Assembly: GCF_020536995.1 (NCBI RefSeq) | Contig: NC_068355.1 | Span: 63,355,738 to 63,419,737, forward strand | Direction: 5' to 3' | Length of the DNA: 64,000 bases | DNA from: Dreissena polymorpha | Taxonomy: Eukaryota | Part shown: positions 6,838-63,580 of the stretch, one piece after another | How the letters are laid out: the number at the start of each line of letters is the position of its first letter | Numbering within the stretch: position 1 is the first letter of the stretch | Notes under the pieces: model-generated | What the model was told of the DNA's origin: nothing | Seen by the model: the letters and a program-made list of their open reading frames with translations, nothing else | Databases searched by the model: none | Made by a program: the position numbers and the translations under genes

Positions 6838-7150
6838 ATTCTATAATAAAACAAGAGGTGTGTTTTTCAGAAACACAATGCCCCCTAATGCGCCGCTTTT
6901 TATTAACTTTTGACCTTGAAGGATGACCTTGACCGTTCACCACTCAAAATGTGCAGCTCCATGAGATACACATGCATCCCAAATATCAAGTTGCTATGTT
7001 CAATATTTCAAAAGTTATTGCAAAACTTTACTGTAAGGTAAAAGTTTTGGGACAGAATGACAGACAGAAAGAAAGAAAGAAAGAAAGAAAGACAGACAGC
7101 CAGGCCAAAACCAATATACCCCCGATCTATCGATCCGGGGGCATAAAAAA
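6838..7150 (+). mobile_element. Tetranucleotide-core interspersed element: gene-like body + (GACA/GAAA)n core + hairpin tail ccccgatctatcgatccgggggcataaaaaa
   Basis: Body tgaccttgaaggatgaccttgacc...atcccaaatatcaagttgctatgttcaatatttcaaaagttattgcaaaac...gttttgggacagaatgacagacag(aaag)n matches copies at 59745-59965 and 61180-61400. The tail contains the palindrome CCCCGAT..ATCGGGGG. Confidence 0.7.
7056..7097. repeat. (GACA)n/(GAAA)n microsatellite core inside the element
   Basis: gacagacagaaagaaagaaagaaagaaagaaagacagacag. Confidence 0.9.
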
Positions 7151-7289
7151 CTTACCATTTTCATATCTGCCATGTTTGTCAAAATTTTTTGAACATTCAG
7201 TATTTACATAACTCCCATGTTCATGTAAATTGTTGACATATTTGACATATGCCATGATTCATTTGACAGTCCATGTGTTCCTTAATATT

Positions 7290-7640
7290 ACATTTTTTAT
7301 GCCCACAGTAGGGTGGCATATAGCAGTTGAATTGTCCATCAGTCAGTCCGTCCGTCCGTCTGTCCGAAACCTTTAACTAAGCTATAAGTTTTGCAATATT
7401 GAAGATAGCAACTTGATATTTTGGCATGCACGTGTATTTAATGAAGCTGCACATTTGAGTGGTGAAAGGTCAAGGTCATCTTTCAAGGTCAAAATTTAAA
7501 AAAATACAATCCAAGGGAAGTAATAAGCTTTAAAAGGGAGATAATTTCTAAACCTGCCAAATGATGTATTAACATTTTATTTCAAAGCGACGCAATAGGG
7601 GGCATTGTTTTTCTGACAAACACATCTCTTGTTTTTTTAT
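7290..7640 (-). mobile_element. Second copy of the same element in inverted orientation; with 6838-7150 it forms a tail-to-tail inverted pair
   Basis: The reverse complement of 7600-7640 (ataaaaaaacaagagatgtgtttgtcagaaaaacaatgcc) matches 6845-6885, and the reverse complement of gacgcaatagggggcattg matches caatgccccctaatgcgc. This copy carries (GGAC)n ccgtccgtccgtctgtcc in place of the (GAAA)n of the partner. Confidence 0.7.
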
Positions 7641-7976
7641 ATGCTTGCAATGCTTATTTTGATTTTGCATGTGTTTTTCATTTAAACATCGCAAAGGTGT
7701 TGTCCTACTCATTTCCACCATGACTTACTTGTATTTCATCTATTAATAATTTGTTATTAGTGTCGAGTAGTTTTAGGTAGCTCTGATATAAAACCTAGAC
7801 TGTAGTCTTAGTTGTTTTATAGCTAACATATAGTTTAATCTAACCTATTCTGAACACGTGCATGTAACAACCAATCATTCACTTTCCCTCCGATATTCAG
7901 TTGCCTGTTGAAAGTTGTTTGAGACAGCCATTGCATTTATTGAATTGCAATATTATATTATTTGTGTGGGATATTT

Positions 7977-8322
7977 TGGATTCCTGCAGGTAACTACTCT
8001 AAATCTTTTATTTATGTTCTCTGTCAATTGTTTGTATTATTATTTAGGACATCTGACGGTTACGGTTGTGTTTATTAGTTATTTATTGAAATAACTTATT
8101 GCGAGTCATATTCACGCCGCCATGCAACGCTAGTCATTATTAATGTGTATTCCACTTGAATGCATACATATATTATCTTGATTATATATCTAATGGCATG
8201 TATTAATTGTTCCTATTTCAGATACCTTTATCGATCTATTAAAACTTTGAAAACATCGATTGATTCGATAGTTTGTCGTCGAACCCCAAGTACGCAAATT
8301 GCGCGTAGCTAGGCCGGCAACA
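7977..8322 (+). repeat. 5' LTR (TG...CA)
   Basis: Matches 12998-13343 over its whole length. Confidence 0.85.
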
Positions 8323-8323
8323 A

Positions 8324-8341
8324 TGGCGCCCAACGTTCAGT
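8324..8341 (+). other. Primer-binding site TGGCGCCCAACGTTCAGT, complementary to a tRNA 3' end (...GGGCGCCA)
   Basis: The TGGCGCCC core sits 1 nt after the 5' LTR terminal CA, the canonical position for an LTR-element PBS. Confidence 0.7.
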
Positions 8342-9059
8342 GAGATCGATCAAATGATATAATTTGGACAATTCGTGTACACAATCCTTGTTCAAGGATC
8401 TACACTTGATGGCCACAAAAGACGTCGTTTAATACCCGGGTTAACGTTAACGCATGCTAAGGGCCCTCTTCAAGACCGTTACGTCACACCATAAGGACCA
8501 AGGACCATTCGTCGCTGGAAGTGTAAAAACTGTGTGTGACTTTGTGAATGAACACTGACATTTGTGATTCTTGCTCATGACGCATGGCGGTGTGGTTAGA
8601 TGTACATTTTATTATTGACCATTTAGTATATTATTTTCAGAAATTGTTTAGTTTGTATCATATTTGTTTTTTTCTTAATGTAAATATCAATTATTTTTGT
8701 CCAATCTAGGTTAAAGATTTTTTTTTTTAAATCAATGCACTAACCATAGGTTGTCCCGTCTAACATACGCCCCTGCATTTGTGTAAACTGTGTTTTCACT
8801 GTCACTAATCCGTTTCCAATAACAATAGAAGTACATAAAGTAGTACAACACAGACAGGTTGACCCGTAGATAGCTCAGGTGATAGTTTAAAGGTCATAAT
8901 TTGGGATCTGTACAATCAATAGATTTACTGCCCACTGTCTTATAAAAAGTTTCAGCCAATGTAAAATCAAATTTGTCTTTAGTTGTTTCAAACTTTCAAC
9001 ATTTGAAACAACGCTCAGTCATTGTAATTTTTAACCAGGTTTTCCGAAGGAAAAAACTG

Positions 9060-9420
9060 GTTATTAGATTGGCGAATGCGGGCGGGCTGGCTGGCTGGCG
9101 GGCTGGCGGGCTGGCGGAACAAGCTTGTCCGGGCCATAACTATGTCGTTCATTGTCATCTTTTAAAATCATTTGGCACATTTGTTCACCATCATTGGACG
9201 GTGTGTCGCGCGAAATAATTACGTCGATATCTCCGAGGTCAAGGTCACACTTTGAGTTCAAAGGTCAAAAATGGCCTTAAATGAGCTTGTCCTGGCCATA
9301 ACTATGTCATTCATTGTGAGATTTTAAAATCATTTGGCACATTTGTTCACCATCATGGTACGGTGTGTCGCACGAAAGAATCACGTCAATATCTCCAATG
9401 TCAAGGTCGCCACGACTAAA
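9060..9420 (-). mobile_element. Nested copy of the tetranucleotide-core family in the LTR-element leader: (CTGG/GGCG)n core at 9085-9118 plus a ~185-bp body duplicated twice (9120-9300, 9290-9420)
   Basis: gggcgggctggctggctggcgggctggcgggctggcgg is followed by two tandem units sharing gcttgtcc.ggccataactatgtc.ttcattgt.a..ttttaaaatcatttggcacatttgttcaccatcat.g.acggtgtgtcgc.cgaaa.aat.acgtc.atatctcc...gtcaaggtc. Confidence 0.55.
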
Positions 9421-10836
9421 AATAGATTATTTTTTTTTAAACAAACTTACAAAGGGGGTTAATTTTGTTTGTTCATTTCAAAAGTTCATTTTGAGTTTTA
9501 TCCCTTTATCAGATTTTTTTTTCACAATGAAAACCTGGTTTTGTGACAATTTTGTCCCTTGTATAAATAGGAAATCGTGGAAACCGAGTTATTCCTTACT
9601 GAAATTAGACTGATCATCTAATTTCATTGAGAAATACTGTTTTGCGTTTAATCCTTGCAAGGTAAAATAATCGCGTCGCTTTAGCGTATTCGAACGGGAC
9701 GAAGAAAAATAAATCGAGGTATTTATTTAAAAGCGAATACATTCGGTTTGTGTTCAGCGCTTTTAAATAATCGATTTATTTGATAACGGAAAAAGGAAAT
9801 TGCGCAATAATTGATTGCGTATAGTTGTACATACGTTGTAGTAATAATTTGTGCGGGTTACACTTGACACTACTTGTGACCAGTGTATTTTTTGGACCGG
9901 AAATAGCGGTATCGATTCTGTACTTGTATGGTTGTACGTGTGTGAGAGTGTGAGAGTGTATTAGTAAATAGTTTAATCGAATTATATTGTTAAATTGTTT
10001 TATAAATGCATATTTATAGTTGTTATTATTATAATTAAATCATATTAGTTCATCAATTTAATTAAATTTATCATTAACATTTATTTAGATTTTTTTTTAA
10101 TTTCTAGTTTGATAAAACTTTAACAATAAGATTGTGATTTAAGTGTAATCTATACGCTGCAGTAATTGTTTATTAAATAAGAGATCATTAATTAAAAAGG
10201 TTTATAAATTAATTAATTAAAAATTACAACTAGATTTATATTAAATAATTGCATGAATGTGTTCAATTATTTGTTGTTATGTTGTATTAGATAACATGTC
10301 AGTTATATTATTATGCATTAGTGGTACAAAGTGAATTCGGTTTATTGATCACTATTGAAATTAGTGATTTAGTGTGTTATTATATTGAATAATTTTGAGT
10401 TGACTAGAAAGGAAACTATTGTAAAACGGAAATACTGGAATGATGATCTGAATGTTGATGAAATTGGAGTGTGTATTATACAAAGTGCTGTGAAACATAA
10501 TTAACACTTAAAAGTGCATACTTATGAAGTGAAATAGACAATTGGTGAACAGTGTTGAGTTTAATTGTGAATTATTGAATTGGAAGTGATATTAACGTCC
10601 AGTGAACAATATTACTGATTGACATAATGAAAATGTATCTAGAGTTATTGGATGTGAACAAATACTAGATACATAATAGTGTTGAATGAATTGTTTTGTG
10701 TTGTAAAGTGCATAAAATATTGTGAAGAGAGGTGAATTTAAGATTAGACTTTGATTTCTGCATATGGTTGGGATCAGTTTCGTAACTGAGTGCATAGTGT
10801 GAAATTCAGTGTGGGTGTGAACGTAATTATTTGAAC

Positions 10837-12579
10837 ATGGATACGGAGAGAGAACTAAGGAGACAAAGAAGGGAGACAAAGAATAAACAACAAACATTAA
10901 AGGAAAAAGAATTGAAAAATCAGAAGGACATTGAAATACTGAATAAAATAAAGGAACGAGACTCAAAGATTCGTGAAATTCAGCGACAAAGAGATGAATT
11001 AATAAAAATGAGATCAGAAAACAACACAGCCCAACATAGAGATGTGAATGATGTAAATGATGTAAAACATAAACAATAAAGAAGGGAAACAGTTGGAGAA
11101 AGATTACAGCACAGCTGTAAAGAGATGGAACATGAAATGAGGACTGAACTTGACTATGATGATGTTGTTGAGGGTGCGGTAGGATTTAAGAATGATGATT
11201 ATCATACCAACAGTTATGAAAGTGACATGGATTCAATAGATGAAGAACTAAGTTGGTTGACTAAGAAGATGGAGGAGACATTCCAGATACATGCCGATTC
11301 TGGGGACAGAATATTTAAAGAGGAGGTGCGATGCAGTACCAAAATACTTGAACCATCTGAGGTTCACGACAGTGAATATGAACACAATAGTGACATTGAT
11401 GAAATTATAAGTGATGATGATATTGCTGAAAAAGCCCTTGAAGCTGAGATAAAGGCAATGAAGTTACAGCAAATGAACTTAAAAGAGGAACTTCATCGGA
11501 AAGAAAAAGCAAAACGATTGAAGGAACAAGAATTATTGCGAGAAACACGTAGGAAACAGAAAGAAGAAAGAATACGGAAACTGAAACGAACAAAACAAGA
11601 ATTGGAACAAGATATAATGGAAACACAGAGCACAATTACGTCATTAGACGAGGAATTGGAACCTGTAGAAACATATGACCGACACAAATATCTAAGAAAT
11701 GCGGAACGGAGAGTGTCACATAATCCACCATTAATGTTGAAACCGAGTGTTCCTAAATTTTCGGACCCAGCTCAATTTACAGAATGGAAAATAGAAATCG
11801 AAAGTATGATTCGGTCAAAAATTTACCAGAAAGACATACTGAAACAGTGCGTTAGAAATGCGATATCTGGAAAACCAAGGAAGGTTTTAGCAACATTGAA
11901 AGCCTAAGCAACTTTAGAAAACATTTTGTCAACGATGGAAAGCAATTTCGGTGATGTAAAAAGCGGACAAAGCATAATGGAAGAATTTTATCAAGCCAGA
12001 CAAAATAAAGACGAAGACATAACGTCATGGGGTATTCGAATTGAAGAAATGATCCAAAGAGCTTTAGAAAAGGGTGAAATACAAGAAAACAAGAAGGAAG
12101 AAATACTGAGAACAAAGTATTGGAAATACTTGAGAAATTCAGAGTTGAAGAATGCTACCAGAGTATTCTATGAAAACTGTCTTACATTTGAAGAGTTACG
12201 GAAACGAGTGAGAAGAGAAGAACAGGAATTGAAAGTTTCACAGGACAGACAAGAACAACCCAAACAGATAAATACAATGCAAATAGATCAACAATTGAGC
12301 ATATTGAATGATCTTACAGAGAAATTACAAAGTATGCAAAAACAACTAGACTTACTAACAAAGGAGAAAGAAGCATCAAAAGACAATAGAAGTGAGAGTG
12401 TGACCAGAGAATACCGGAGAAACGATGCCAGACCACAAACCGGATATAGGAGAACATTTTCACAAGGAAGAGGTTACTCCGGAAACAGAGGTCCATATAG
12501 AGGCAGACGACCGTACGGACAAGATGCTTATCATAGAGACAGCAACTCTCAACAACATTTAAACGGGAACCAGCTCTAA
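10837..12579 (+). pseudogene. Retrotransposon gag-like ORF (frame 1) interrupted by two in-frame TAA stops (11077-11079 and 11905-11907)
   Basis: Track ORFs 10831-11079, 11125-11907 and 11926-12579 all lie in the same frame and are separated only by TAA codons. The protein is coiled-coil and charge-rich, contains VPKFSDPAQFTEWKIEIESMI (retrotransposon gag-like F-W motif) and an Arg/Gly-rich C-terminus, and has no CCHC knuckle. Confidence 0.6.
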
Positions 12580-12653
12580 TTGATGGGGTCAATGAGGGCT
12601 GTGAGGATACCACTATCCCCAAACAGAAACCAGCTGAAAACATTTTTAGTAGA

Positions 12654-12995
12654 ATGGTGGGTAATGCTAATCTATCTACTATTACTATCAACGGCAAAGA
12701 GACAACCGCGCTTATTGACAGCGGGTCGCAGGTCAGTATTGTAACTGAAAAGTTTTACAACGAAATGACACCAAAACCAGAACTGATGTCATTGAATGAA
12801 TTTAATCTTGAATTAAAAGCAGCTAATGGCACCCACATTCCATATTCTGGATATATTCAGACAACAATTGAAAGCAAAATTTTGGACATGAAAGTAGAGA
12901 CCATTCTTCTTGTTGCGCCGGTTGACGAGAGTCATGGTAGTGCTCATGTCATAATTGGCACAAATATAATCAGATATATAAAAGACTTGTACAGT
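12654..12995 (+). CDS. Retroviral-type aspartic protease domain (pro), in the -1 frame relative to gag
   Basis: Has TTALIDSGSQVSIV (D-S/T-G active-site motif) and a downstream HVIIGTNII (the GRD/N-like flap motif). The ORF runs straight into the 3' LTR at 12998, so no pol follows. Confidence 0.75.
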
Positions 12996-12997
12996 GA

Positions 12998-13343
12998 TGG
13001 ATTCCTGCAGGTAACTACTCTAAATCTTTTATTTATGTTCTCTGTCAATTGTTTGTATTATTATTTAGGACATCTGACGGTTACGGTTGTGTTTATTAGT
13101 TATTTATTGAAATAACTTATTGCGAGTCATATTCACGCCGCCATGCAACGCTAGTCATTATTAATGTGTATTCCACTTGAATGCATACATATATTATCTT
13201 GATTATATATCTAATGGCATGTATTAATTGTTCCTATTTCAGATACCTTTATCGATCTATTAAAACTTTGAAAACATCGATTGATTCGATAGTTTGTCGT
13301 CGAACCCCAAGTACGCAAATTGCGCGTAGCTAGGCCGGCAACA
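12998..13343 (+). repeat. 3' LTR
   Basis: Matches 7977-8322. Confidence 0.85.
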
Positions 13344-17862: not shown

Positions 17863-18560
17863 CTATAGAACTACCCATAAAATCCGGTTCCGTAAATTCC
17901 GCTGCATTTTTTTAACCCTCATAACGTCTGTATATGAACAACCAAATCCGATTGCATGAAGAGTATCGACAATGTACTTTAACCGATATAGATGATTGAT
18001 TTGTCCAGCAAGTCCCACTTGTTGTGGTGCAATGACAGCTTGTGGACGAACTGCTAGAATAATAGCATGACAAATTGCTGCAACCTGCTCTATTGTGTCT
18101 TTTCCATAGAATAATGCCTCTAGTAGTGTCCGCAGACTAGTCGGAAGGAATGATAGAGCTGACTCAAGCTTTAAATCCTCACTACTCAGATACCGATTCG
18201 GCAAGGTAACAACTTCAGACTTAATATCACTTTTGATTAATCTAGAAGCAGTTTCAATGATAGCACGTTTCTGGGACTCTTCATCTAATTCCCCACACTT
18301 TTGCTTGTAATATATGATCTCATTATTTGCGATGTTTGTTCTCTCATCATAACAATATCGTCGAAACCTTCTCCTTTCGGAAAAATGAATAGTGTCATTG
18401 AAGCGTGTTGTAAGATGCTTTTTCAAACTGTAATTGTCATATTGTTCCGACTCAAGATTGCAAAGATACCCTCGCATTATTTCTCTCGAAGACGTTATAG
18501 TTAGTGATTCCTCACTAGTACGACCAGATTTTTTGCGTTTGATATCGGGGGCATTCTGAA
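17863..18560 (-). CDS. Unassigned ORF (204 aa from its ATG, open further upstream to ~18560); possibly an exon of a degraded transposon protein or an uncharacterised host gene
   Basis: Long minus-strand open frame ...FQNAPDIKRKKSGRTSEESLTITSSREIMRGYLCNLESEQYDNY...LPTSLRTLLEALFYGKDTIEQVAAICHAIILAVRPQ.... A further minus-strand ORF at ~18955-18812 reads MSANTSRQDLCPICNEEIEISKNNWVAIQWKRIIEDSVKQN (CxxC), and short open frames continue below 17860. No family recognised by eye. Confidence 0.25.
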
Positions 18561-22434: not shown

Positions 22435-22575
<141 letters not shown>

Positions 22576-27245: not shown

Positions 27246-28120
27246 AATTAATTAATTATTTAACACATACTGGTTCGAAACCTAAATTTTCCTTTCTTTG
27301 TAGACAATACATTGTTTAAATAACCATTATGTTACTGACCCTCTACTGGCGAATCTTCACATAACAACCACTTTACCACTAGATCTGCTATACTTTATCG
27401 TATGCACTACTGTTTGTTTTATATTTGTGTAATTCTCTTAGAGATATGCTGACGTGTTACCACAAAATGTCATTGTTTTGTAATCTGTGAATACGAATAA
27501 AATGCTGTTCTGTTAAGTTCTGTTCTGATACAAGTAATTTTACCTCATAAGAACTGATTGTATTTAGCATGAATTTAACGTTTTTCGGTGAATATGGGCT
27601 TAGTTGTGTTAGTCCATGATAAATATATTATACTTAAATGGAAATTAAAAAATAACGCAACTTGAAATATTGATTCGGTTATCATTATTGTATTCTGACA
27701 CGTGACATGACTGTATTTATGATTGTGCGCATTTAAGATGATGTACATATGTATACGTTTTTATAAACTGTCAGTTCTGTTTTAGTCTGTGAATGTTGAA
27801 ACAAAAACACACTAATATTGATGTCCTTAATTGTATTTCATTATCAAACGTTACATGTGTTCAGATAAAGATATATTTGAAGGTTATATGAGTTGTTTTA
27901 TTAATATGGGTGTTCGTACGACCTGTAGGGGAGGGAACTCTTGTTTATGCATGCAATATTAACAATATGTCTTTTTACTGGTAGAGTTTGCTAATTAAGT
28001 ATTTCAAGTTAAGACTCCACACGTAGTCAGTAAGCAAGCATTATGGTGACGTGCTCAGCCTAGAACATGTAAGCAGCTTAAACGAGAAAGAAATAATACG
28101 TAACAAGCAAATTCGTTGAA

Positions 28121-28590
28121 TTGATATCCCCCGCGAATATGCTTCTGGACACAAAAGTGTTATATTTGACACTCAAAAATGCATTTTTCCAAGATACAAA
28201 GGGCCATAACTCCTTTATTATAAATGGTGTACAATGCCATTTGGCGTGCATCATCCTCTTATTCATATATATATACACATACCAAGTTTCAATGAAATCC
28301 ACCAAAAAACTTCCAAGATATGGCTCCGGACACAAAAAAGGATTTTTCCAAGATACAAAGGGCCATTACTCTGTTATTAACAGATGGTGTACAATACCAT
28401 TAGGTTTGCATCATCCTCTTATCCATATATATACTCAAATTAAGTTTCATTGAAATCCGCCAAAGCACTTCCAAGATATGGCTCCGGACACAAAAGTGCC
28501 TAACGGACGGACGGAAAGACGGACGGACGGACGGACAACGTCAAAACATATTGTGTTATAATATATAATGATATTCCCTACGCCAATGGC
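28121..28590 (+). mobile_element. Tetranucleotide-core family copy: ~185-bp body duplicated in tandem (28121-28300, 28300-28495) + (GACG)n core + tail ttccctacgccaatggcggggaa
   Basis: Two units share ttccaagatacaaagggccat.actc..ttatta..a.atggtgtacaat.ccatt.gg..tgcatcatcctcttat.catatatata.....a..aagtttca.tgaaatcc.ccaaa..acttccaagatatggctccggacacaaaa. They are followed by ggacggacggaaagacggacggacggacgg. Confidence 0.65.
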
Positions 28591-28762
28591 GGGGAATAAT
28601 CAGAACATGAACACTTTAAATTAGATTAACAGGAGTCAAATATCCCATAAAATTAGCGTTGAACTTCTGAGAACTTCTACTTTTAATAGATAAGTATTTA
28701 AAGAACAAAATATGGCTTCTGATGATTAAATGTTGTTTTATAACCCTGATATTCCCGTCAGA

Positions 28763-31199: not shown

Positions 31200-31440
31200 T
31201 CATTGATTGGCACGCTTTATTATCCCCACGCTTTTTTAAAAGCGTGGGGATAATGTGGTTATCTCCGCCGTCCGTCTGTCTGTCTGTGTGTCTGTCTGTA
31301 TGTCTGTCCGTTCTGGCCACTATCTCCTCCTACACTACTAGCACTACAACCTTGAAACTTACACACATGGTAGCTATGAGCATATGTGCGACCCTGCACT
31401 ATATGGAATTTTGATCTGACCCCTGGGTCAGATGTTATGG
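31200..31440. other. Hairpin atccccacgctttttt/aaaagcgtggggat + (GTCT)n tract + GC-rich ggggttggggtggggcc block; possibly a reverse-orientation tail or core of the tetranucleotide-core family
   Basis: The perfect 14-bp inverted repeat around 31214-31250 and ccgtccgtctgtctgtctgtgtgtctgtctgtatgtctgtcc at 31270-31312 are read directly. Confidence 0.5.
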
Positions 31441-32385
31441 GGGTTGGGGTGGGGCCGGATCAGAGATTTTCACTCATTTGTTAGTTTTTTTTTACATTAA
31501 CTTCTTTATTTCTACACCAATTCACTTCAAATTGATACTGAACCTCTCTTATGACAATACGGTAAATCTCAACTATGCATGGCCCCATTTCCAACCCTAG
31601 GGCGCCCCGCCTACATAGACCACACCCACCCAAAATTGCCTTTTACTATAATTTCTTCATTTCTACACCGATTCACTTAAAAAAATTGATACTGAACCTC
31701 TCTTATGACAATACAGTCAATTTCAACTATGCATGGCCCCGTTACCAACCCTGGGTCGCCCCGCCCACATAGACCACACCCACCCAAAATTGCCTTTAAC
31801 TATAATTTCTTCATTTCTACACCGATGCACTTCAAAATGATACTGAACCTCTCTAATGACAATACGGTCAATCTCAACCATGCATGGCCCCATAACCAAT
31901 CCTGGGGCGCCCCGCCCACATGACCACACACATCCAAAATTGCCTTTTACTATAATTTCTTCATTTCTATACTGATTCACTTTAAATTGAAACTGAACTT
32001 CTTTTTTGACAATACGGCCAATCTCAACTATGCATGGTCCCATTACCAACCCTGGAGCGCCCTGACCACATAGGCCACACCCACCCAAAATTGCCTTTTA
32101 CTATATTTTTTTCATTTCTACACCAATTCACTTCTAATTGATACTGAACTTCTCTTATGACAATATGGTCAATCTCATCTATGCATGGCCCAATTACCAA
32201 CCCTGGATTGCCTCATCCACATAGGCCACACCCACCCAAAGTTGTCTTTTACTATTACTTTTTCATTTTCACACCGATTCACTTGTGATTGATACTGAAC
32301 TTCTCTTATGACAATACGGTAAATCTCAACTATGCATGGCCCCATTACCAATCCTGGGGCGCCCCTGGATCAAACATGCGGCGTG
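31440..32385. repeat. ~150-bp tandem repeat x6
   Basis: The recurring block ctgaac.tctcttatgacaatacggt.aatctcaactatgcatggccccat.accaaccctgg..cgccccgcc.acatagaccacacccacccaaaattgcctttt.actataatttcttcatttctacaccgattcactt occurs at a 145-162-bp period; the marker atgcatgg is at 31575, 31729, 31880, 32035, 32180 and 32342. Confidence 0.85.
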
Positions 32386-35149
32386 GGGATACGCGTCGGC
32401 CTTTGCTGCGCCATTTCTAGTTTTGTATTTGATTTCAATTAAATATTTAAACAATAAAAATCACCATGCTCCTTTCATAGGACAAAATGCCAGGGCCTTG
32501 AGATTGCAGGTTTCCATCTTTTTTTTATAAATTAAAAATGCAAATCGCACTGTACCCTTTTGACAACATTGACTCCGTCACGGGAGATATACTGTCATCA
32601 ATAAGCATATATATTTTTATATTATTATTATATATTTTTATTTCATGATATTCTGATATTCACTTTCTGTAATTTCTAATTTTATTATTTGATGCTGTTG
32701 CTGTTTGTTTGTTTTTTCTCACTTACACTTAAAATTTAACACTTTCTCACTTAAAATTAAACACAGTTTTGCAGCTGGTTGTATAATTTTGTTTTCCCCT
32801 ATATTTAATTTTCCTTCTATAACGGCTCTGTGATATGCATTGATGAGTCACTCAGCAATATGTGCGTTTTGTTATCATAACATATATGTATGTACCTTGT
32901 GCACATTTAAGTCATTTAATCTATGTGTTTGCTTGTTAATTCTTCAAAACATAGTCATGTATGCTTTTTTATCATTGCCAGTAGCAAATACAAGTCAAAT
33001 ACAAAGAATCTATGCCTACACATGTGGTATCTGAAAGCTGGTTAAATTAAGGTCTTGAATGTAAGTGAAATAAGGTATTAAATTAATAATTTCATTTACA
33101 ATCACATACACTTATTTTTAACGAAATCCTTCAAGAAGTTACAGTCGAACAAAGAGGGATTGTATAAACTTTTCGTACTATAATTAGATAATGTTAACAT
33201 ATAATAATAGAAAAAAAGGCAACTCTTTATTATCTTCGAATACGGGTAGCAGCAAACAATTCTACCTTTACAATCATTTCCACACTATGCTCATTAAGCT
33301 GCGAATTCAATTGCGAAAATCCACCTTGCGATTCCAGAGGATAACGTACATTTATTTTTAAACGTAGGTACGTATGCCGGACGGACTACTATAACAATGT
33401 AATGTCCAATGGGAACCGAGCCATGCCGAAATATATGATAAGATAACGATCGCACTGGTATTGCAGAATGTTATCATTTTAATTTCTCAATATTGATACA
33501 TTTATATTAATATAAATTGTATTCTTCTTTTATCTTCACTTTGGTGTGGGGATGGGTTAGCCAGTTTATAAACGATTGAAGGGACATTTTTTTCACAGAA
33601 TTTGGCATGTATTGAAGTTTGTCATTACATGCTTTATATTGTAAACATTGAATCTAAAAAGCTCCGGTATAAAACAAGAATAAAATTAACGAAAGAAAAA
33701 ACAAGTAACCCTCAAATCGGCTCGAACCACTGACACCTGAAGAAAAAGTCTAACGCGTAGACCTATTTGCCATCCATGCTCATACAATGAGTGATGTATT
33801 TTATACTTTATATAAGTAATCCTCGTAGTGTCACACACAACGACAGAACTCTCCAAATTATTCAATCGTTTTGCATTGCAACGCTTTATAATTTTCAGGT
33901 TTGTAAATCGTTCAAAGATGCCTATAATGGATATTTTAGAGCATGGTAAATGTTCAGTATTACTGTTTCCTCCCAAATATCATAACTACAACGAGACTTT
34001 GCTTATCTGATTTTTTTAAAAATTTTGTCGCTGTACCAGAGCGCAAACATGTCTCTTAAATACAAAAAGGTCAGCAATTTATTTTAAGCTTATTTTGCAA
34101 GCTGACTTGTTTGCCATTCATCGATGTCCCCATCAACAGGTGTTATTTTAATTTAGCAATTTACATTTGGGTATTCATTCATATTTACCATAGCTCTTTA
34201 TATACACGATCACCATGACCTTTATGAACGACGTAGTTTCCTGATCTAAACTTGAAAAATTTACACTTTTCATTTTCCGCCACCGCAATCACCGTATAAG
34301 CACCTTTTTCATGTAAGTAGCATAGTAATTGTATCTATAACTCTTTCCGTGTGAAAACTCTATCAATTTAAAGGCATGCTTTATATCCCCAGCAGATTTG
34401 AAAGTAAGTTTTTCAAGCATTTTTAAATTACAGAAAGTGCTCATATAGTATAGAATTTAGAATCATTGCAAATACGTTAATTAAATAAAGTTAATCTTGA
34501 ACAAATTAGATGTGTGACATTAATATGTTAGACTCATTTATTTAGTCGGTATTCTTAGGTTTAATATATGTATAAGATTTGTATTTGATATATTATTTGT
34601 AAAAATGCAAAATGTGTGTTATATGTTTCTTTTAATTGCAAGATAAATTTACGATTATATTGACTCATAGGACACAATTATTAAAGGTGAAATTATGAAA
34701 CAAAAATGTTTCTTCAAATTTCATGTTTTCTGAAACGGCTGTTAAAGTGTGTTTTTATTGTCACCGAATATTGCAAACACGAGTGGGTGAGGACGGTGTT
34801 TTGATGTTAACATCATCTTATCATGCGAGAAAGCATAACTGATTATTATTGATATTATTCCTTTCACTAATAGATTCTTTAAGTAATATTTTTCCCCCAA
34901 ATCGTTTTATGTTGTTAACGAACTATGTAAACTACCATGATATACTGTAACAGTTCATGTTAAAAATTCACTTTAACACTAATTACAGCATACAAGGATA
35001 GGCGCATTGATACTTGTGTTTTTCTTGCTTTTCATTAAATAGTTTTATTGATAAAAGTTAAAGACAACTAAAAGCATTTCCAAGCTATGTAGACGGCCAA
35101 TTCAAACCTTGATTTATGGCTGCTTCATAAAATGCATGACGATGATCTT

Positions 35150-41402: not shown

Positions 41403-41403
<1 letters not shown>

Positions 41404-42428
41404 GTGTAAGAAGACTCAGCGATTACCAGAACGTCGACGAACGGTATGAAATCGAAACATTGTATAATCATTAACTAATTTGCCATCACTAGCATATAAG
41501 TAATATTTAATTGTGATTAATAATGTAATACATTAAATGCTTAACATAATAAATGCTATATCTATGTTAAACGTTTCGTTTCAGTAACCTTCCAGAGCCA
41601 GCTGTATCGGACAGAGTGCTAATTGATCCAGCAACAGTAGAGTACATAGTTGTAGAGGCAGGATCAAAAAGAGGATAACCGAAGCTTGTATCCTCAATCC
41701 TCATATGGATATTCGTTCAATAAGGTAGTATCATTTATAAGTAATTTCACGGAGACTTAAGCATGCTCGTAAAACACCATAAATATTATTTATTATCAAA
41801 AATACTGTTTTCAATATTATTTCATAGTCATTTTCGTTTACAGAAGCAGACCTAGAAACCCGCTTTGTGGAGGTGCAGCGTTCGACTGAAAGGGTTAACG
41901 TGTAACGCGACAGTCAGGCAAGGCGGTGACATGGTTCACACTTCAGGGACCCTGCTGACCCATTGATGAGGAAGCGAGTAGAGTTGAAGCGTAATGTAAG
42001 TTCATTGTTTATTAAAATAAATAGTTATTTAATCTAAGAGTGGTCAGTGTAGTCCGGCAGACTGTTCCCACCAACAATGACCCATAAGGCCTGTAAGAAT
42101 GTACAGGAAAGATTCGTGAATATTGTACTCTAATGAACGAACGTTTTATTTTTCCCTTTTTGTAAGTAATTTCATTTTCATTTTGTTATTAAAGCGATTA
42201 CATTTAATTTATGTCTGTTAATTGTTTTTTAAGGGTGGCACCGTCGGTTGACAATGAGGGTAGCCGACCACAAATGCTCGTTTTATGTTTTGATCCCTCT
42301 CCTGCAGCGCGAGGCCGAGTACATGTACTTCCAAGGGCAGGCCCAGAATGTACAAGAGAACCGGGCGGGTCTGACGCCATACGTATGTTCAACCTGGATC
42401 AGCAGCTCGGCGAGCTTTGTGATTTTTA

Positions 42429-42454
42429 GCATAGGTGCGTTTACGCACCTATGC
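42429..42454. other. Perfect 11-bp-stem hairpin gcataggtgcg-ttta-cgcacctatgc at the edge of a GC-rich island (42230-42420)
   Basis: Read directly; cacctatgc recurs at 43150. Confidence 0.8.
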
Positions 42455-43432
42455 TTATGGTATATACCACATTTCGAAAATCCACATCGATCGGTTGCCC
42501 TTTTTGAAGCCTTACCTGATCAAAAATCAGACGAAATATCTATTTAATTTAGTATATGGTCATTCTTACAATTTTTTTTTGAAACGTTTTTCTAACGTTT
42601 TCTTCCAAGAATATTGCTGACACCGTTTTAAGTGAATTTTTCTAAGACCGTTTTATGTCAAAAAATCTTCTTATAACCTAAAACAAATTTCGTTCGTAAA
42701 ACGATTCTATCTGCACTATAAATCTCAATCTCCTACGCAGTGGCCTCCCTTATATTAGAAGTTACTGACCGGGCGAAGCAAGGGAAGTAACTGCTGTGAG
42801 GAGTTTCTATAAAAATCTGCATTCAGAAATCTGTATTCAGAACTCAATCTGTTGTGCACGTCTGCATCTAACGCTTACCACAAGTTTTACGACAAATTCT
42901 TGACGCAGACGAATAGGGTAGCGTCTATTTTCATTTGTGAAAACAATAGTTCGATACAGATCTGTTCCGTGCTTAAATTTTGAAAGGCTTGGGTAATTAT
43001 TTTTCATAAGCGTTTCAAACACTGATGTAAATGGAAAGGTTATCTATTTAAATAGTCGGTTATTGTTTGAAATTATTGATTTGTGAAATTCGCGGATGGC
43101 GATATCGAACTACATTATACCACGTGACGCCATTCTTCCCTGTATCTTGCACCTATGCTTTTAACGCCATCGGCGCTCTCGTTATTATTAGCGACAGGAT
43201 CGGGAGGCTTTGAAGAGCTAAACCGCCTCTTGGAATCCCAAAGAGTTACCACGTTTCAACTACATGATTGTTTATTTATTTATATTTGTGTAATGTGTTC
43301 GTTTGTTTTCTGTTGTTTTAAGCCCTTTATTTATGCGAAATACTAGTGGATACGCAATTTTAATTATTAATTTGAAAAAAATAAAAAAATGTAGACTTGT
43401 TTTAAACTATTTCTCTATGCAAAAAACCCACC

Positions 43433-43640
<208 letters not shown>

Positions 43641-53944: not shown

Positions 53945-54031
53945 GAATGAGTCAATGTTCGTTAATTGGATACCTCCATTTTCTACAGATTGAATTAACT
54001 GAGTTCGTTTTATTTTATCAGGCTAACCGCC

Positions 54032-56553: not shown

Positions 56554-56984
56554 TTAATAAGATGGTGGAGTACATGATAATTTTTAGAGTGTCTGTCCAG
56601 TTGTTTTTTATTATAAGACATAGGTCAATGAAAGTATTATATGTTTTGGTGTTTTGTGTAAAGGTGATGTGTATGTACAAATATAGTAAACATTTCATCT
56701 TGACATATACAATGGAATATCGGGAAAGAAAAAAAAACATCAGAAAAAAAGAACAAATAACACAAAAACAACAAACAATTAAAACGAAGAGAATTCTTTG
56801 TGTGCTTGTCCAGTTGCTTTCTATCACAAGACATAGATAATAGGTTTTCATGTTATATTTAGAGCCAGAGGGAGGTATGGGCAAGAATAAAAATTTATTT
56901 ATGTAACTTATCAAGACTGGGTTTGTGTGTGTAGTCATGTGTTTTTACGTGTGTTGCTGCGTGTGTTGTGTGCATGTAATGAAA

Positions 56985-57600
56985 AAAATATAATAAAAAA
57001 ATGTAAAAAAAAGTGAGTGGGTCAATATTTGAAGGTTAGTGAAGTATGCGTGTGTGTTTTGTGAGTATTTGAAGTAAAATATTTTCTTTTACATGTTTGT
57101 ACAATGCTTGCTAAAGCGATCTAATGAAAACAAAACTGACATATACTATACATGCTAGTATACTATACATGACATATTAAAGACAAACGACAACAAATAC
57201 AATCGTATCGTGTGGTTAACAAGTTGTTTACAGTGTAATACTATCAAATAAAAGATAATAATGTTGACAGGATGTTAACATAAAACAAAATATAATAAAA
57301 GGTAAAGAAAACAGTGAGTGAGTCATTGTTTGAAAGTTAATGAAGTATGCATGTGTGATTGTATTTGAAGTAAACATATATTCGTTTACATGTTTGTACA
57401 ACGCTTGTTTAAGCGATCAATGAAAAAACAAATTTGACTTATACTATATATACCCGTATACTACACTATACATGACATAGAATAGACAAACGACAATAAA
57501 CAAAACTTAACGTGTGTACTAACAAGTCGTTTACATTGCAATACTATCAAATAGAAGACAATAATGTTGACAGGGTGTTAACATCAAAATCAAATGTATC
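56985..57600. repeat. ~310-bp tandem duplication x2 immediately upstream of the LINE 5' end
   Basis: ...gtgagtg.gtca.t.tttgaa.gtta.tgaagtatgc.tgtgtg....gta.tttgaagtaaa.ata.t..t.tttacatgtttgtacaa.gcttg.taaagcgatc.aatgaaaa.caaa..tgac.tatactata...ctatacatgacata..a.agacaaacgacaa.aa....a...gt.tg..aacaagt.gtttaca.tg.aatactatcaaata.aaga.aataatgttgacagg.tgttaacat is seen twice. Confidence 0.8.
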
Positions 57601-59169: not shown

Positions 59170-59700
59170 TCGTTTTTATAAAAAATCGATACAACTGTAC
59201 ATAATAGATACTTATTGTCATCATTATACATTTTTACTTTCACAACATCACATATATATATATATATTTAACAAAATAGCACATATGTATTACGCGACAT
59301 CAAAGATCAATTTAAACGTAAACACTGACTAGATTTGTAAGGCTTTTCAATAATTATCTACCTGAGTAATATATGCACTTATTTGTTAAGTACCAAACAT
59401 TATTTTTGAGCAGAAGGATACACAAAAAACAAATGCCATATGCTTGACGATTGTATACACCTTTTAATTGAACTTAATTTAATTAGATACTAATTAATAG
59501 TCATCATTATACATTTCACGTTCACAGCATCACATATATATATATTTAACAAATCAACTGATATGTATTACACAACATCAAATATTTATTTAAACGTAAA
59601 ACTGACAAGATTTGTACGGCTTTTCAATAATTATCTATCTGAGTAATGCACTTATTTTTTAAGTACCTAACATTGTTTTGGAGCAGAAATTATTTTAAAA
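59170..59700. repeat. ~270-bp tandem duplication x2, with dispersed relatives at 52405-52495 (85-bp segment) and 62440-62600
   Basis: Both units share catcattatacattt...cacatatatatatatttaacaaa...atatgtattac.c.acatcaaa.at..atttaaacgtaaa.actgac.agatttgta.ggcttttcaataattatcta.ctgagtaat...gcacttattt. The segment ggatacacaaaaaacaaatgccatatgcttgacgattgtatacaccttttaattgaacttaatttaattagatactaatt matches 52405-52495. Confidence 0.75.
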
Positions 59701-59744
59701 ATTCATTCAAATAGTAAACAAGAGCTGTGTTTGTGATACACAAT

Positions 59745-59965
59745 GCCTCCTACTGCGCCCGTTTGAAGCCATATATCTGACCCCTGACCTTGAAGAATGA
59801 CCTCGATCTTTCACCACTCAAAATGCCAAATATTAAGTTGCTCTCTTCAATACTACAAAAGTTATGACCAAGGTTAAAGTTTTGGGACAGACACACACAT
59901 ACAAAAACAGACAGACAGACAGGCAAAAAACCAACATTCCCCCGATCATTTGATCCAGGTGCATA
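59745..59965 (+). mobile_element. Tetranucleotide-core family copy (5'-truncated body + (GACA)n + tail)
   Basis: ctgaccttgaagaatgacctcgatctttcaccactcaaaatgccaaatattaagttgct.tcttcaatact.caaaagttatgaccaaggttaaagttttgggacagacacacacatacaaaaacagacagacagacaggcaaaaaaccaacattcccccgatcatttgatccaggtgcataaaaat aligns base for base with 6905-7150. Confidence 0.75.
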
Positions 59966-60469
59966 AAAATTATCCCTGTTGCCAACAATGTTTTTCAATG
60001 ACTACCAAATAATAAAGGTCTCACAACAGAAGGTTGCATCACATGTCACTAGATGTTGTGGCATGCATAGTCTTTCTTATCCGTATTTGATGTCGGTCTT
60101 GTTTTTTTCATATTAATGTCACACTTGATTTAATGTTAAATACTAGATTAATGAAAACTATTATACACACACCTGGTTGTAATGTTAATAAATGTATATC
60201 AGAACAAACAGAACTCAAAATAATTATAATTTAATAAAAACGACACAAATATTAATAATCACAATGTTGAGCAAAAATTGCACATGCATTTAGATATAAC
60301 AATAAACATAAAACAAGTGTTGTCCATAGGCAAAATTCGTTAACAACACTCTCGCTTTGATAGTATAATGTACAGTTTCTCTCATTCAACTACACTATCA
60401 ACTGCAAAGACAAATTTGTTAATTTAATAAATAAACAAGAAGGCCATGATGGCCCTGAATCGCTCACCT

Positions 60470-61110
60470 GACTAACCTTGCTTCATGAACTTAAATTTTA
60501 TTAGACCCATATACAATCCCAAGCCAAATTTCATTTATTAATACATTCTGACAAAATTTCATTAAGATGTGATGACAACTGTGACCTCTTTCATCTACAC
60601 AAGGTTTGACTAGAATTGGCCCGGTGACCTAATTTTTGACCCCAGATGACCCATATACGATCCAAAATCAGATATTATCAAGATAAACATTCTGACCATA
60701 TTTCATTAAGATCATATGAAAACTATGACCTCTATTGTCTTCAATTTTTTTTTATGAATTGACCTAGTGACCTAGTTTTTGACCCAAGATGACCCTAATA
60801 AAATCCCAACCCATATTTCATCAAGATTAATATTCTGGCCAAATTTCATAAAGATTGCATGAAAACTGTGACCTCTATTGTCTACACAAGGTTTTTCTAT
60901 TCTTTGACCTAGTGACCTAGTTTTTGACCCCAGATGACCCAAATACAATCCCAACCCAGATTTCATCAAGATAAACATTCTGACTAAATTTCATAAAGAT
61001 TGGATGAAAACTGTGACTTCTACTGTCTACACACACAAAATGTTGACGGACACACGCAAGCACATACGGACGCCAGACATCAGACGGTCACATAAGCTCA
61101 CCATGTTACT
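60470..61110 (+). mobile_element. Tetranucleotide-core family copy whose ~155-bp body is amplified to 4 tandem units, then a (GACG/GACA)-like core and unique tail
   Basis: Units at ~60478, 60632, 60790 and 60940 share gacc..atgaccc.aata.aatcc.a.cc..atttcat.aagat.aa.attctg.c.aaatttcat.aagat....tgaaaactgtgacctct..tgtctacacaaggttt...gacctagtgacctagtttttgacc. The last unit runs into gacggacacacgcaagcacatacggacgccagacatcagacggtcac. Confidence 0.75.
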
Positions 61111-61179
61111 TCGTGACATGTGAGCTAAAAACAAGACTATTGCCGGCAATATATGTCCCCTACCAGCTCCACCATTGTC

Positions 61180-61400
61180 AGATTTTATTTATATATATAT
61201 TTGTTGCCGTAGCAACCCAATTTTTTGACGTAGGAACAAAATGAAATGTCCGTATTGCCATCTATCCATGTTGTAAGTTTCATGAAAAAGTATGAAGAAC
61301 AAGTTATTGCAGGATCCAGAAAACTGTGACCGACAGACAGACAGACGCATAGAGCGCAAACCATAATTTCCCTCGAGTGAAACCGGTAGGGGACAATAAT
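61180..61400 (+). mobile_element. Tetranucleotide-core family copy with (GACA)3 core and tail ttccctcgagtgaaaccggtagggga (imperfect hairpin)
   Basis: gtaagtttcatgaaaaagtatgaagaacaagttattgcaggatccagaaaactgtgaccgacagacagacagacgcatagagcgcaaaccataatttccctcgagtgaaaccggtaggggacaata. Confidence 0.7.
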
Positions 61401-61699
61401 TCTATGATACTGTAAATACAAACTCCAAATAGTCTTTTTTTGTCTGTAAAGTGATGCATTTTGTTTTTGTAATAAATGATAACCCGAGATTTAATTGAAA
61501 AGTAACTAGACTTTGTCAGATATAATATGTTTTGTAAGATGCGCAAAGAACTGATATTTTGCAAGCTAATGAATATTTATAATTTAAATTATTTTTCACA
61601 AGGCTTTTTTTTTTATAAAACAAGTCACATTAAATTATAACATTTACAGATAAAATGCAGCACGTGATTTTTTATTTCTTATAACAATACCATATTTAT

Positions 61700-62260
61700 A
61701 GGCTACTGATAGCGCCTTATTAAAGACTTCCTATTTAAAACAAAAAAGTATAAAGGCAAAAACTATAAAATTATATACAACACAGAAATTAATATAAACC
61801 ATTCAAAATATAGTTTATTAACCCATTGTTTCAAACTATCTATCCAAAACCAAAAAATAGACGGCCTTTAGGCTTACATTATAAAAAGTCATTTATTTGT
61901 ACTACTGTAAACGCCTTACTAAAAATACTTTCTTTTGCAACAAAAGAAAGTATTAAGGCAAACACTACACAATTATATACAAAACCAAAAGTAATAGAAA
62001 CCATGCAAAATATAAATTATAAGGGCCTTGTTCCAAACTATCTATCCGAAATAAAACAATAGACAGTCATTAGGCTTAACCTTTTACAATAAAATATCTA
62101 TTTACTCTCTCTCCTGTTAACGCCTTATTAAATACTTCCTTTTTGGAATAAAATAAGAAATAATGCGGACACTGTGTAATTATATATAACATTTAAAAAG
62201 TTAATTTAGCCACTTGTTCTGAACAATCTGTTGGAAACAATACAATCGATTTTTATCGAT
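61700..62260. repeat. ~185-bp AT-rich tandem repeat x3
   Basis: The recurring block tg.taa(a)cgccttattaaa.acttcct.ttt..aa.aaaa.a.gtat.aaggcaaa.actat/caaattatatacaa.ac..aaa.taata.aaaccat.caaaatata..ttat.a..c..ttgtt.caaactatctatccaaaa.caaaa.atagac.g.c.ttaggctta repeats. Confidence 0.75.
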
Positions 62261-63059
62261 TGATTCGGTCATCATGCAACAATTTGGAAAGTATAAGCTA
62301 TTATACTTTAACAATAGAAATATACATGTATGTTCCTCATTTGTTAAACCAGCATTGAGTCTCTGTTTAAATACACCATTATTTCAAGAGCAATCAAATA
62401 TGTTTTTGGTAATCTAAAAAAAACATTCAAAGCAATTTATTGATTCAAAACTAATTATTTGATTATCTTTATCATTGAAACATCATCAGGTGTATAGAAC
62501 ACATCACATACATATTAAACAAATAAAACATCTATATTAAAGCAAAGCTGACTAGACATTTATGTACTTGCACCAATAATCTGTGCTAATAATATATGCA
62601 CTTATTTAAAAAAAATAAAAATTAACTCTGCTGGTATTTCTTAAGCTTCTCCCGTCAGTTATCACAATGGTGTAAGTGTGTACCCAATTATTATAATATA
62701 TGCCTCCAAATAAGATTGGAATATTACATGCAATCAGAGAAGAGCATACTCCTACCATGCTCTGTCTTTTATATCTGTGTTTAAGCCAGTCTTGGTATTT
62801 TAAATGTGACCCAAATTAAAATATTAGAAATACCATTCATATTATAAACAGATAAAGTTCTTATGAAAATAGAAATGAAATAGAACTAACATATTTACAT
62901 AGGAAATTACGTAGATTAGTCCAACAAAATTATTAACAATCATGCACATATATTTAAAAAGAAACAAGAAAAACAATACTGTCAAAACACTCATCATCAA
63001 TCATGTTAAATAAGTTAATATATGTTAAAATCCTTTATACATTATCATATTAAAGTGAC

Positions 63060-63580
63060 GACAATCCCAACAGTTGGACCTTGACTCATTGACTTTGATG
63101 GAAGCCATGGGGTACTTTCACACAACACACTCATGAGTGAGATTATGTGTAAAGCTATACAAACATCTTAAAATGTTACATTTCTACCCAAGTTAAGTTT
63201 AACACAGACAGAATGACTAGACATAGTAAGTCCTATATAACTTCCCCATCCACCAACTTAAAGGAGGCTAGTCTGTCAGATAATGAGTAATGCCAGACAA
63301 AAACAAGAGGGCCTGAAAGTCGTTTTATGTGAAGCCCAATAAGAGCAAGATATTATAAAAAATGTTTTAAACAAGTTTCATGAAGAATGACCAACAAATG
63401 GCCCCCTGGATATTAGGCCTGAATAATTTTTTTGACTCGCAATAGAAATCATTGGTACAAAAATTGACAAAGTTTCATGAAGATCCGACAATGAATGTGG
63501 CTTCTACAGTGCTGAAAAGGCAAATATTCATGACACACAAGGGAAGACAGACAATTGAAAAAATGTCATCACAAAAGTTC
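63060..63580 (+). mobile_element. Probable additional tetranucleotide-core family copy (body with two aagtttcatgaaga... units; minimal gacagaca core at ~63548)
   Basis: acaatcccaacagttggaccttgactcattgac...; aacaagtttcatgaagaatgaccaacaaatg... and aaagtttcatgaagatccgacaatgaatgtggcttctacagtgctgaaaaggcaaatattcatgacacacaagggaagacagacaattg resemble the bodies at 60470-61110 and 28121-28500. Confidence 0.45.

Follow-up and report, generated by a model that had tools for sequence, protein, structure and literature searches.

Are the short non-coding repeats scattered over a 64,000-nucleotide stretch of the Dreissena polymorpha genome copies of one abundant element, or do several elements share there a common plan of construction? 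The stretch (contig NC_068355.1, positions 63,355,738 to 63,419,737, hereafter the window) is AT-rich (~33% GC) and crowded with repeats. The original prediction, made from the sequence of the window, had described at least nine loci as one dominant interspersed family, in which a common body is followed by a variable tetranucleotide core and by a hairpin-forming tail. The modular architecture is genuine and far above chance, but the reading as a single dominant family is wrong. The loci are very probably ten copies of non-autonomous Helentron-type rolling-circle transposons (HINEs), distributed among at least seven sequence families and amounting together to ~5.2 kb, i.e., ~8% of the 64-kb window (Table 1). 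Elements of this kind are already well described in bivalves under the names HINE, pearl, DTC84-like, MgE and Cg_HINE, and the present copies are additional members, an ordinary find.

Anatomy shared by the ten copies

On the strand of the element, the copies begin with two to six T residues, followed by a 5' subterminal inverted repeat (subTIR) of 10-13 nt, by a complementary inverted repeat 3-10 nt downstream, with which the subTIR forms a hairpin, and usually by a (GTCY)n microsatellite. Then come a spacer and/or one to six tandem units of 145-162 bp, the 3' subTIR, a palindrome and finally CTTGTT(T)n. This order of modules is identical in all elements, as seen from the tables of their 5' and 3' ends. 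The 5' subTIR arm starts 4-6 nt inside the 5' end and the 3' arm finishes 22-35 nt before the 3' end, and the terminus itself is CTTGT(T)n, with the exceptions of D (CTAGTTTT) and I (CTCGTT). In its published form, a HINE carries subTIRs of 11-15 nt, the 5' one adjoined by an inverted repeat, together with a microsatellite, facultative tandem repeats in the centre and a short 3' palindrome; it inserts into T-rich or TT sites without target-site duplication (TSD) and ends in a variable number of Ts (PMC4067079). The anatomy of the loci follows this definition feature by feature, and we therefore class them as probable HINEs (PMC4067079; PMC7492417).

The two subTIR arms are perfectly complementary in B, D and F, and I has an 11-nt pair; when randomly placed pairs of segments from the window were used as a null, the scores of B, D and F were reached in at most 0.2% of cases. 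The pair is weaker in A1, with 8 nt, in C, where one of 10 nt is mismatched, and in E, with 6 contiguous nt; the consensus of E-type copies from metagenomes shows a perfect 10-nt pair. In five of eight copies, namely A1, B, C, D and E, the 5' hairpin folds better as DNA than shuffled sequences do (z between -3.2 and -9.8), and element I has a perfect 12-bp stem. In nine elements, G being left out, the 3' subTIR is separated from CTTGTT by a palindrome with a stem of 4-7 bp.

The motif (GTCY)3 (GTCYGTCYGTCY), with one mismatch at most, occurs 28 times in the window for 0.34 occurrences expected, and 27 of these matches are located inside six elements and lie in every case on the strand expected from their termini. 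The elements hold every (GTCY)n microsatellite of the window bar one, at 16803-16814, a single-mismatch chance match that displayed no element anatomy on inspection. Six copies (A1, A2, A3, C, D and F) have a GTCY-type microsatellite, E and G a degenerate one, and B one made of GGCGGGCT; it is absent from I. The core motif had been described as differing between copies: this stands for B, whose motif is outright different, but (GACA)n, (GACG)n and (GTCT)n represent one GTCY-type motif read on opposite strands, and the (GAAA)n run of A1 sits between two TGTC pairs. On the strand where the microsatellite reads GTCY, the hairpin taken for a tail is in fact the 5' end, namely the 5' subTIR with its inverted repeat, and the elements had been read backwards.

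Tandem arrays of 2-5.8 units, with units of 145-162 bp, adjoin the microsatellite in B, C, D and E, which thereby hold four of the satellite-like arrays of the window; A1-A3, F and I carry no such array. At every locus of the original prediction, a non-coding body, a tetranucleotide microsatellite and an adjoining potential hairpin are indeed present, and the tandem amplification of the body that it reported was recovered in B (9122-9408, 2 x 162 bp), C and E. The loci were correctly placed but their limits were not: 31200-31330 corresponds to the left module only of D, 63060-63580 has been moved to ~63299-63610 for G, and the other copies reach 20-150 bp beyond the limits first given. The listed copies were too short because the 3' module (3' subTIR, palindrome and CTTGTT) had been overlooked. 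Element I was not in the list; an exact 8-mer scan for a motif with a nearby and a distant complement recovered by several k-mers only D and this new element, and served as a lead only, since its total of 32 clusters (12.5 +/- 3.8 in shuffled sequences) was mostly AT-rich noise.

The boundaries of the elements are sharp and the copies are dispersed to unrelated flanks. No TSD was found in the eight window copies examined, nor in six full-length copies from metagenomes. A non-T base ends the 5' flank and another begins the 3' flank, beside T-runs of variable length; the base that follows CTTGTT is a T in 51 of 72 loci. The elements have no coding capacity: no Pfam-recognisable protein was found in any of them, a Helitron Rep or helicase domain was found nowhere in the window, and inside the elements no open reading frame (ORF) reaches 120 aa, with the exception of a 121-aa ORF generated by the repeats of the D array, which is outside the set scanned with Pfam. 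Moreover, neither a Rfam scan at gathering thresholds nor ARAGORN detected any tRNA or short interspersed element (SINE)-type RNA family inside the elements.

Sequence families and related copies elsewhere

The body itself is not common to the copies. Comparison of the satellite-masked window with itself by blastn gave mutual matches only among 6832-7149, 7381-7641 and 59699-59969, and family A accordingly consists of A1, A2 and A3 only. A1 and A2 align over the body and the right flank (6842-6899 with 7641-7584 at 90%, 6898-7021 with 7504-7381 at 88%), A1 and A3 share 66% identity over 327 aligned bp, and shuffle-controlled local alignments relate the three copies with z of 21-75. Their ends follow the pattern ATGCCCCC ... 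GGGGGCAT ... CTCTTGTT. A2 is inverted relative to A1, with 142 bp between their 5' ends, and its left flank differs from that of A1.

In the same alignments, B had only a short GGTCAAGGTCA-type motif in common with family A (z 5-8), and the bodies of C and D matched no other element, which contradicts the common body on which the single family had been built. The ending aaaactgtgacc of the body, supposedly shared by all copies, occurs in E and F only. The links among E, F and G are weak. The 12-mer GTCACAGTTTTC, present in the E units and once in F, is the sole motif shared by F and E; a nhmmer profile of the E units matches G at 63448-63510 on the minus strand (E = 3.5e-4), and the 5' parts of G and E show 73% column identity, ATGGTGAnCTTnTGTGA included. 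E and G are taken as a second family, with the end pattern T(n)-AGCTCACCTG ... CAGGTGAGCG-n5-GGGCCATCATGGCCCTCTTGTT, and B, C, D, F and I are each counted as a separate family. E and F are arranged head-to-tail on the minus strand, and the T-run at 61127-61131 is common to both.

Related copies were found at other loci. A 21-kb stretch (L001) of an unrelated 1.87-Mb contig, reached via a homologue of a G protein-coupled receptor (GPCR) gene of the window, harbors two related elements. The E-type element (1276-2870) consists of TTTTTT-AGCTCCACTGGCC-gta-GGCCAGCGAGCT, (GTCC)n and about seven units of ~160 bp; its 5' end is AGCTCCACTGG and its 3' end CCAGTGGAGCG-ataca-GGGCCATCATGGCCCTCTTGTTT. The A-type element (17790-18075) exhibits ATTCCCCCGCATC..GATGGGGGGCAT, (GTCT)n, a body with GGTCAAGGTCAA, then GGGGGCAT..CTTGTTTTTT. 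Two solo E-type 3' modules are found in tandem upstream of the full E-type element, at 736-775 and 850-889 of the same stretch (period ~114 bp); they are a duplicated 3' end.

When metagenome contigs were searched for exact matches to the last 22 nt of E, 78 loci carrying CAGGTGAGCGATnCAGGGCCATCATGGCCCTCTTGTT were recovered, a number that is no independent test of the conservation of the palindrome, since the family E palindrome is part of the search pattern. In these loci conservation extends over the next 16 nt upstream (CAGGTGAGCGATnCA). The 3' ~38 nt of E (CAGGTGAGCGATnCAGGGCCATCATGGCC(C/T)TCTTGTT) are nearly invariant in the 78 contigs, which come from several metagenome projects, some of them labelled marine. 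Similarity stops at CTTGTT followed by 0-4 T, the information content falling from 1-2 bits per position over the final ~40 nt to ~0.1 bit immediately downstream; BLAST matches between the window and the metagenome loci never extend past the 3' end of E (60433), save for a few low-complexity bases of A/T-runs. Farther upstream, the loci divide into at least four unrelated sequences or subfamilies. The six full-length copies (259-2124 bp) start with TTTTTA-GCTCACCTGAGC, the number of Ts being variable, and possess a hairpin, a (GTCY)n microsatellite and a 5' arm perfectly complementary to CAGGTGAGC. Another contig (L067) carries the repeats of family E at 95% identity with the same 3' end at a different locus, and A-type ends are present in several of the metagenome contigs.

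The terminal modules are conserved while the interiors differ. Shared ends with differing interiors, as seen in L001, in L067 and in the metagenome loci, show that the terminal modules are the conserved and functional part of these elements and that the interior represents exchangeable cargo. The near-invariant ~38-nt 3' module on different cargo is the sole mildly unusual aspect of the find, and could reflect a long-lived or horizontally moving lineage. It might be speculated, although we regard this as rather doubtful, that one Helentron transposase lineage with strict terminal recognition persisted in distant bivalves or moved horizontally among them, recruiting new cargo, and that head-to-tail pairs of the F-E type are read-through intermediates of module exchange.

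Relation to known elements and competing classifications

In Crassostrea gigas, 11 Cg_HINE families of non-autonomous Helentrons have been described (Vojvoda Zeljko et al., 2020; PMC7492417). They present a 5' subTIR of 11-12 nt, a complementary inverted repeat at a distance of 1-12 nt, a microsatellite that is in most cases tetranucleotide (GTCY, GTCC or GTCK), a variable spacer of 10-500 bp, tandem repeats of 140-180 bp mostly in five units or fewer, and a right flank of ~60 bp with the 3' subTIR and a palindrome (PMC7492417). They lie in T-rich sites without TSD, and several families coexist per genome, some with common flanks but different repeats (PMC7492417). The window elements, likened here by description and not by sequence, are similar in module order, in their apparent T-rich insertion without TSD and in their multi-family structure; they differ by their dreissenid mussel host, by the lack of a tandem array in A1-A3, F and I, and by the lack of a microsatellite in I. 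The motif strings of the window are absent from the supplementary text of PMC7492417, and a literature string search with the terminus strings returned no relevant paper.

The pearl/DTC84 group comprises pearl (CvA, CvE and CvG of Crassostrea virginica), DTC84 of Donax trunculus and MgE of Mytilus galloprovincialis, with the layout L flank, one to five core repeats, (ACGG/ACGA)n and R flank, AA ends and an inverted motif of ~11 bp, which occupies a subterminal position in one flank and the very end of the other (PMC3879986). Read on the opposite strand, the window elements display this layout, the comparison bearing on layout and not on the sequence of the core repeats. The likeness to microsatellite-bearing MITE-like elements of bivalves suspected in the original prediction was thus correct (MITE, miniature inverted-repeat transposable element; PMC3879986). 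C has the ACGG motif as in pearl/DTC84, and MgE is devoid of microsatellite, like element I. The group was first read as MITEs with an AA TSD, whereas the T/A-runs behave here as part of the element, with no TSD; it was later re-classified as non-autonomous Helentrons/HINEs (PMC7492417; PMC4067079). [quoted passage not shown] They differ by their arthropod hosts, with which shared sequence is not expected, and by the autonomous Helentron partners with >95% identical ends that are known there.

Published work on Helentrons allows a mechanism to be proposed. A Rep-helicase(-endonuclease) encoded elsewhere by an autonomous element would recognise the terminal modules, nick the DNA, peel off one strand and transfer it into a T-rich (TT) site without duplication. 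The microsatellite and the internal repeats would then expand or contract by slippage or unequal exchange, and the elements would in this way scatter microsatellites as well as short satellite-like arrays over the genome. The T-runs at element ends may be preferred targets, which would explain the abutting F-E pair; alternatively, the pair may result from read-through past the 3' end.

A canonical Helitron starts with TC, ends with CTRR preceded by a hairpin ~11 nt before the 3' end, and inserts between A and T. These signatures are absent from the window elements, whose ends are T(n)A/G... and CTTGTT(T)n, CTAG followed by TTTT being found in D only; moreover, the 3' flank begins with A in seven of the eight window copies examined. 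That the loci are non-autonomous canonical Helitrons or Helitron2 elements, moved by a Rep-helicase without endonuclease domain, is consequently improbable, even if rolling-circle logic covers equally well the absence of TSD, the 3' palindrome and the head-to-tail E/F pair. Repbase lists the equivalent oyster elements as "Helitron-N" (PMC7492417, supplementary table), and Helitron2 does have terminal inverted repeats that are asymmetric, as well as a palindrome at either end (PMC4067079); only an autonomous partner would separate it from a Helentron. Against both Helitron lineages, the combination of a 5' subTIR, an adjacent inverted repeat and a microsatellite is the DINE-1/HINE layout that has been tied to Helentrons (PMC4067079).

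A single family of classical MITEs, the working model of the original prediction, is very improbable; these would be cut-and-paste deletion derivatives with terminal inverted repeats and TSDs that carry a microsatellite by chance. The elements are short, non-coding, dispersed and provided with inverted repeats near both ends, and the older literature labelled such elements "MITE-like", with "AA" as putative TSD (PMC3879986). However, the inverted repeats are subterminal and asymmetric, unlike the terminal repeats that had been anticipated, no duplication flanks the window or metagenome copies, the "AA" is the T-run of the element seen on the other strand, and the copies do not make one sequence family. 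Least credible of all are SINE-like retroposons with a microsatellite or A-rich tail (body, tetranucleotide repeat, A-run): in the orientation first chosen most copies do finish in an A-run after the simple repeat (e.g., gggggcataaaaaa), but they have neither TSDs nor a tRNA, 5S or 7SL-related head, the sole Rfam match of the window being a tRNA outside the elements, and their opposite end, with its subTIR, palindrome and CTTGTT, is equally sharp and conserved, which a retroposon model does not predict.

Several observations weigh against the classification as Helentron-type HINEs, or temper it. A2, A3 and G have a decayed subTIR pair, and the 5' hairpin is decayed or not significant in A2, A3 and F, where the hairpin predicted at 61360-61385 is no better than shuffled sequences. 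RNAalifold applied to eight E-type 5' ends retained invariant (outer) pairs only, without compensatory changes, and the 3' palindromes are short and individually fold no better than shuffles (z 0 to -2.1). Element I is devoid of microsatellite and that of B is not of the GTCY type. Scans for the terminal modules are noisy: a relaxed search for a 9-mer subTIR with CTTGT gave 60 matches for 41 +/- 6.5 in shuffled sequences, and a search for a palindrome with CTTGTT gave 8 for 2.7 +/- 2.1, recovering A1, A3, E and F, together with 30767(-), 34106, 39055 and 58163. Finally, Helentron mobilisation is what we infer from structure, which is also what the choice between a Helentron and a Helitron2-type enzyme relies on: no autonomous element with these termini was found in the window, no empty site was recovered, and the flanks are consistent with TT insertion without duplication. 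As for the additional matches of the palindrome search, 30767(-) was rejected as a HINE end, having no 5' module on inspection, and 39055 belongs to another repeat family, named H below.

For the annotation of dreissenid genomes, such loci should be masked as Helitron/Helentron-N families and not as one repeat or as independent micro- and minisatellites. In marker development, microsatellites located in such elements share their flanks, which leads to multi-locus amplification. With the window, the known association of HINEs with dispersed satellite-like repeats gains a further example from another bivalve lineage; no new question is opened.

Table 1. HINE copies and further annotated features of the window (positions in the window; z, hairpin score against shuffled sequences; IR, inverted repeat; p, probability under the null of random segment pairs; LTR, long terminal repeat)
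Feature	Position	Strand	Size and remarks	5' part	Interior	3' part
HINE copy A1, family A	6848..7150	-	303 bp	T-run 7145-7150; 5' subTIR ATGCCCCCGGATC 7132-7144; IR 7116-7127; z -3.9	(TGTC)2(TTTC)6(TGTC)2 7054-7101	subTIR AGGGGGCAT 6878-6886; palindrome GTGTTTctgaaAAACAC 6860-6876; end CTCTTGTTTT 6848-6857
HINE copy A2, family A	7293..7638	+	346 bp	ATGCCCAC agta GGGTGGCAT; weak hairpin, z -1.2	(GTCA)2(GTCC)3GTCTGTCC ~7338-7365	subTIR 7597-7605; end CTCTTGTTTTTTT 7626-7638
HINE copy A3, family A, decayed	59716..59969	-	254 bp	subTIR pair decayed (ATGCACC / GGAGGCAT); hairpin not significant	(GTCT)n 59885-59924, minus strand	end CTCTTGTTT 59716-59724
HINE copy B	9028..9562	+	535 bp, 2 tandem units of 162 bp	subTIR AACCAGGTTTTC; hairpin 9033-9062, z -4.3	(GGCGGGCT)n 9078-9117; tandem repeats 9122-9246 and 9284-9408, 89.6% identity	subTIR GAAAACCTGGTT, 12/12 complementary, p ~0.0007; palindrome TTGTgACAA 9541-9549; end CCCTTGT 9556-9562
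HINE copy C	28102..28599	-	498 bp, 2 tandem units of 158 bp	hairpin ATTCCCCGCC attg GCGTAGGGAAT, z -3.9	(GTCC)n 28503-28536, minus strand; tandem repeats 28174-28495, 158 bp x 2.0	subTIR GCGGGGGAT 28126-28134, complementary to the 5' arm over 10 nt, 1 mismatch; palindrome AATTCaacGAATT 28110-28122; end GCTTGTT 28102-28108
HINE copy D	31220..32424	+	1205 bp, 151-bp x 5.8 array	perfect hairpin, TATCCCCACGC 31221-31231 and IR 31242-31252, z -9.8	(GTCT)n 31270-31313; spacer 31314-31489; tandem repeats 31490-32365	subTIR GCGTGGGGATA 32381-32391, 11/11 complementary, p ~0.002; end TCTAGTTTT 32416-32424
HINE copy E	60433..61131	-	699 bp, 145-bp x 3.7 array	TTTTT AGCTCACATGT..ACATGGTGAGCT hairpin 61095-61126, z -3.2	degenerate GTCY tract ~61040-61090; tandem repeats 60504-61033, 145 bp x 3.7	subTIR CAGGTGAGCG 60461-60470; palindrome GGCCATcATGGCC 60442-60454; end TTCTTGTTT 60433-60441
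HINE copy F	61127..61396	-	270 bp	subTIR TGTCCCCTACC 61385-61395; IR decayed, z +0.56	(GTCT)3 61331-61346, minus strand	subTIR GGTAGGGGACA 61154-61164, 11/11 complementary, p ~0.002; palindrome TTGCCGGCAA 61140-61149; end GTCTTGTTTTT 61127-61137
HINE copy G, degenerate relative of E	~63299..63610	-	boundaries approximate	hairpin and subTIR decayed		end GGCCCTCTTGTTTTT 63299-63309
HINE-like copy I	42423..43183	+	761 bp	12-bp hairpin: TTTTT, then AGCATAGGTGCG 42428-42439 and CGCACCTATGCT 42444-42455	without microsatellite or tandem repeats	subTIR GCACCTATGCT 43149-43159; palindrome CGCCatcGGCG 43165-43175; end CTCTCGTT 43176-43183
ORF, gag-like	11125-11907	+	no Pfam match; only named relatives D. 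polymorpha proteins, 64-88%			
ORF, PNMA-like	11926-12579	+	below Pfam cut-off			
ORF, aspartyl protease	12654-13115	+				
Non-LTR reverse-transcriptase fragment	54032-54742	-	RVT_1, E = 3e-15			

Other features of the window

Repeat family H is present in two copies on the plus strand (36611-37855 and 38069-39059), which are 76% identical in their 5' part and 85% in their 3' part. It contains degenerate internal repeats of ~145 bp and 37-bp tandem repeats, starts with TAGAGCGCGAAGCGCGAC, and its 3' end (TTGATGnTTTGCATCAA..CTTGT) resembles those of HINEs; a 5'/3' subTIR pair and a microsatellite were not found in family H. The tRNA matched by Rfam at 36232-36321 (+) scores 54.9 bits and has an intron-like insert, and ARAGORN reports none there. 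A second tRNA-like stretch is located at ~38377-38450, inside the second H copy.

HINE B lies between two 346-bp direct repeats (7977-8322 and 12998-13343) that are 5 kb apart and 100% identical. The three ORFs at 11125-13115 (+) form a gag-protease-like unit, a retroelement remnant, and the second 346-bp repeat starts at a splice-donor-like junction (CAG/GTAAC) that ends its aspartyl-protease ORF. The identical pair could be a very recent duplication, a LTR-like structure or an assembly artefact.

The GPCR gene mentioned above is an intronless rhodopsin-type ORF at 24791-25894 (+), its best match among named proteins being one of Dreissena polymorpha (68% identity). A homologue with 78% nucleotide identity is found on a metagenome scaffold (L002), which also has, ~410 bp downstream of it, a 57-bp match to positions 33590-33645 of the window, which lie here 7.7 kb downstream of the GPCR ORF. 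The extra interval of the window, compared to this scaffold, holds HINEs C and D as well as minisatellites of 119 bp, 59 bp and 29 bp.

The remaining repeats are of diverse types. A satellite of ~6 kb (45758-51785) is made of the 9-mer TTAGCCTAT and shows higher-order periods of 39, 48, 69, 78 and ~292 bp and a strong negative GC skew; its flanks were checked for HINE ends and have none. A (AGT)n microsatellite of ~327 units occupies positions 1-978 and runs off the start of the window. The inverted-repeat element at 44116-44877, with 16-nt terminal repeats (TGACGTACAATATGTA) and internal tandem repeats of 19-20 bp, looks like a foldback or TIR-type (terminal inverted repeat) transposon unrelated to HINEs. 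Unclassified repeats are also present at 56982-57598, 61693-62189, 59205-59688 and 52411-52495/59413-59495 (a ~300-bp tandem duplication at 80%, a ~200-bp tandem at 75%, a ~210-bp pair at 84% and an 85-bp pair at 94%).

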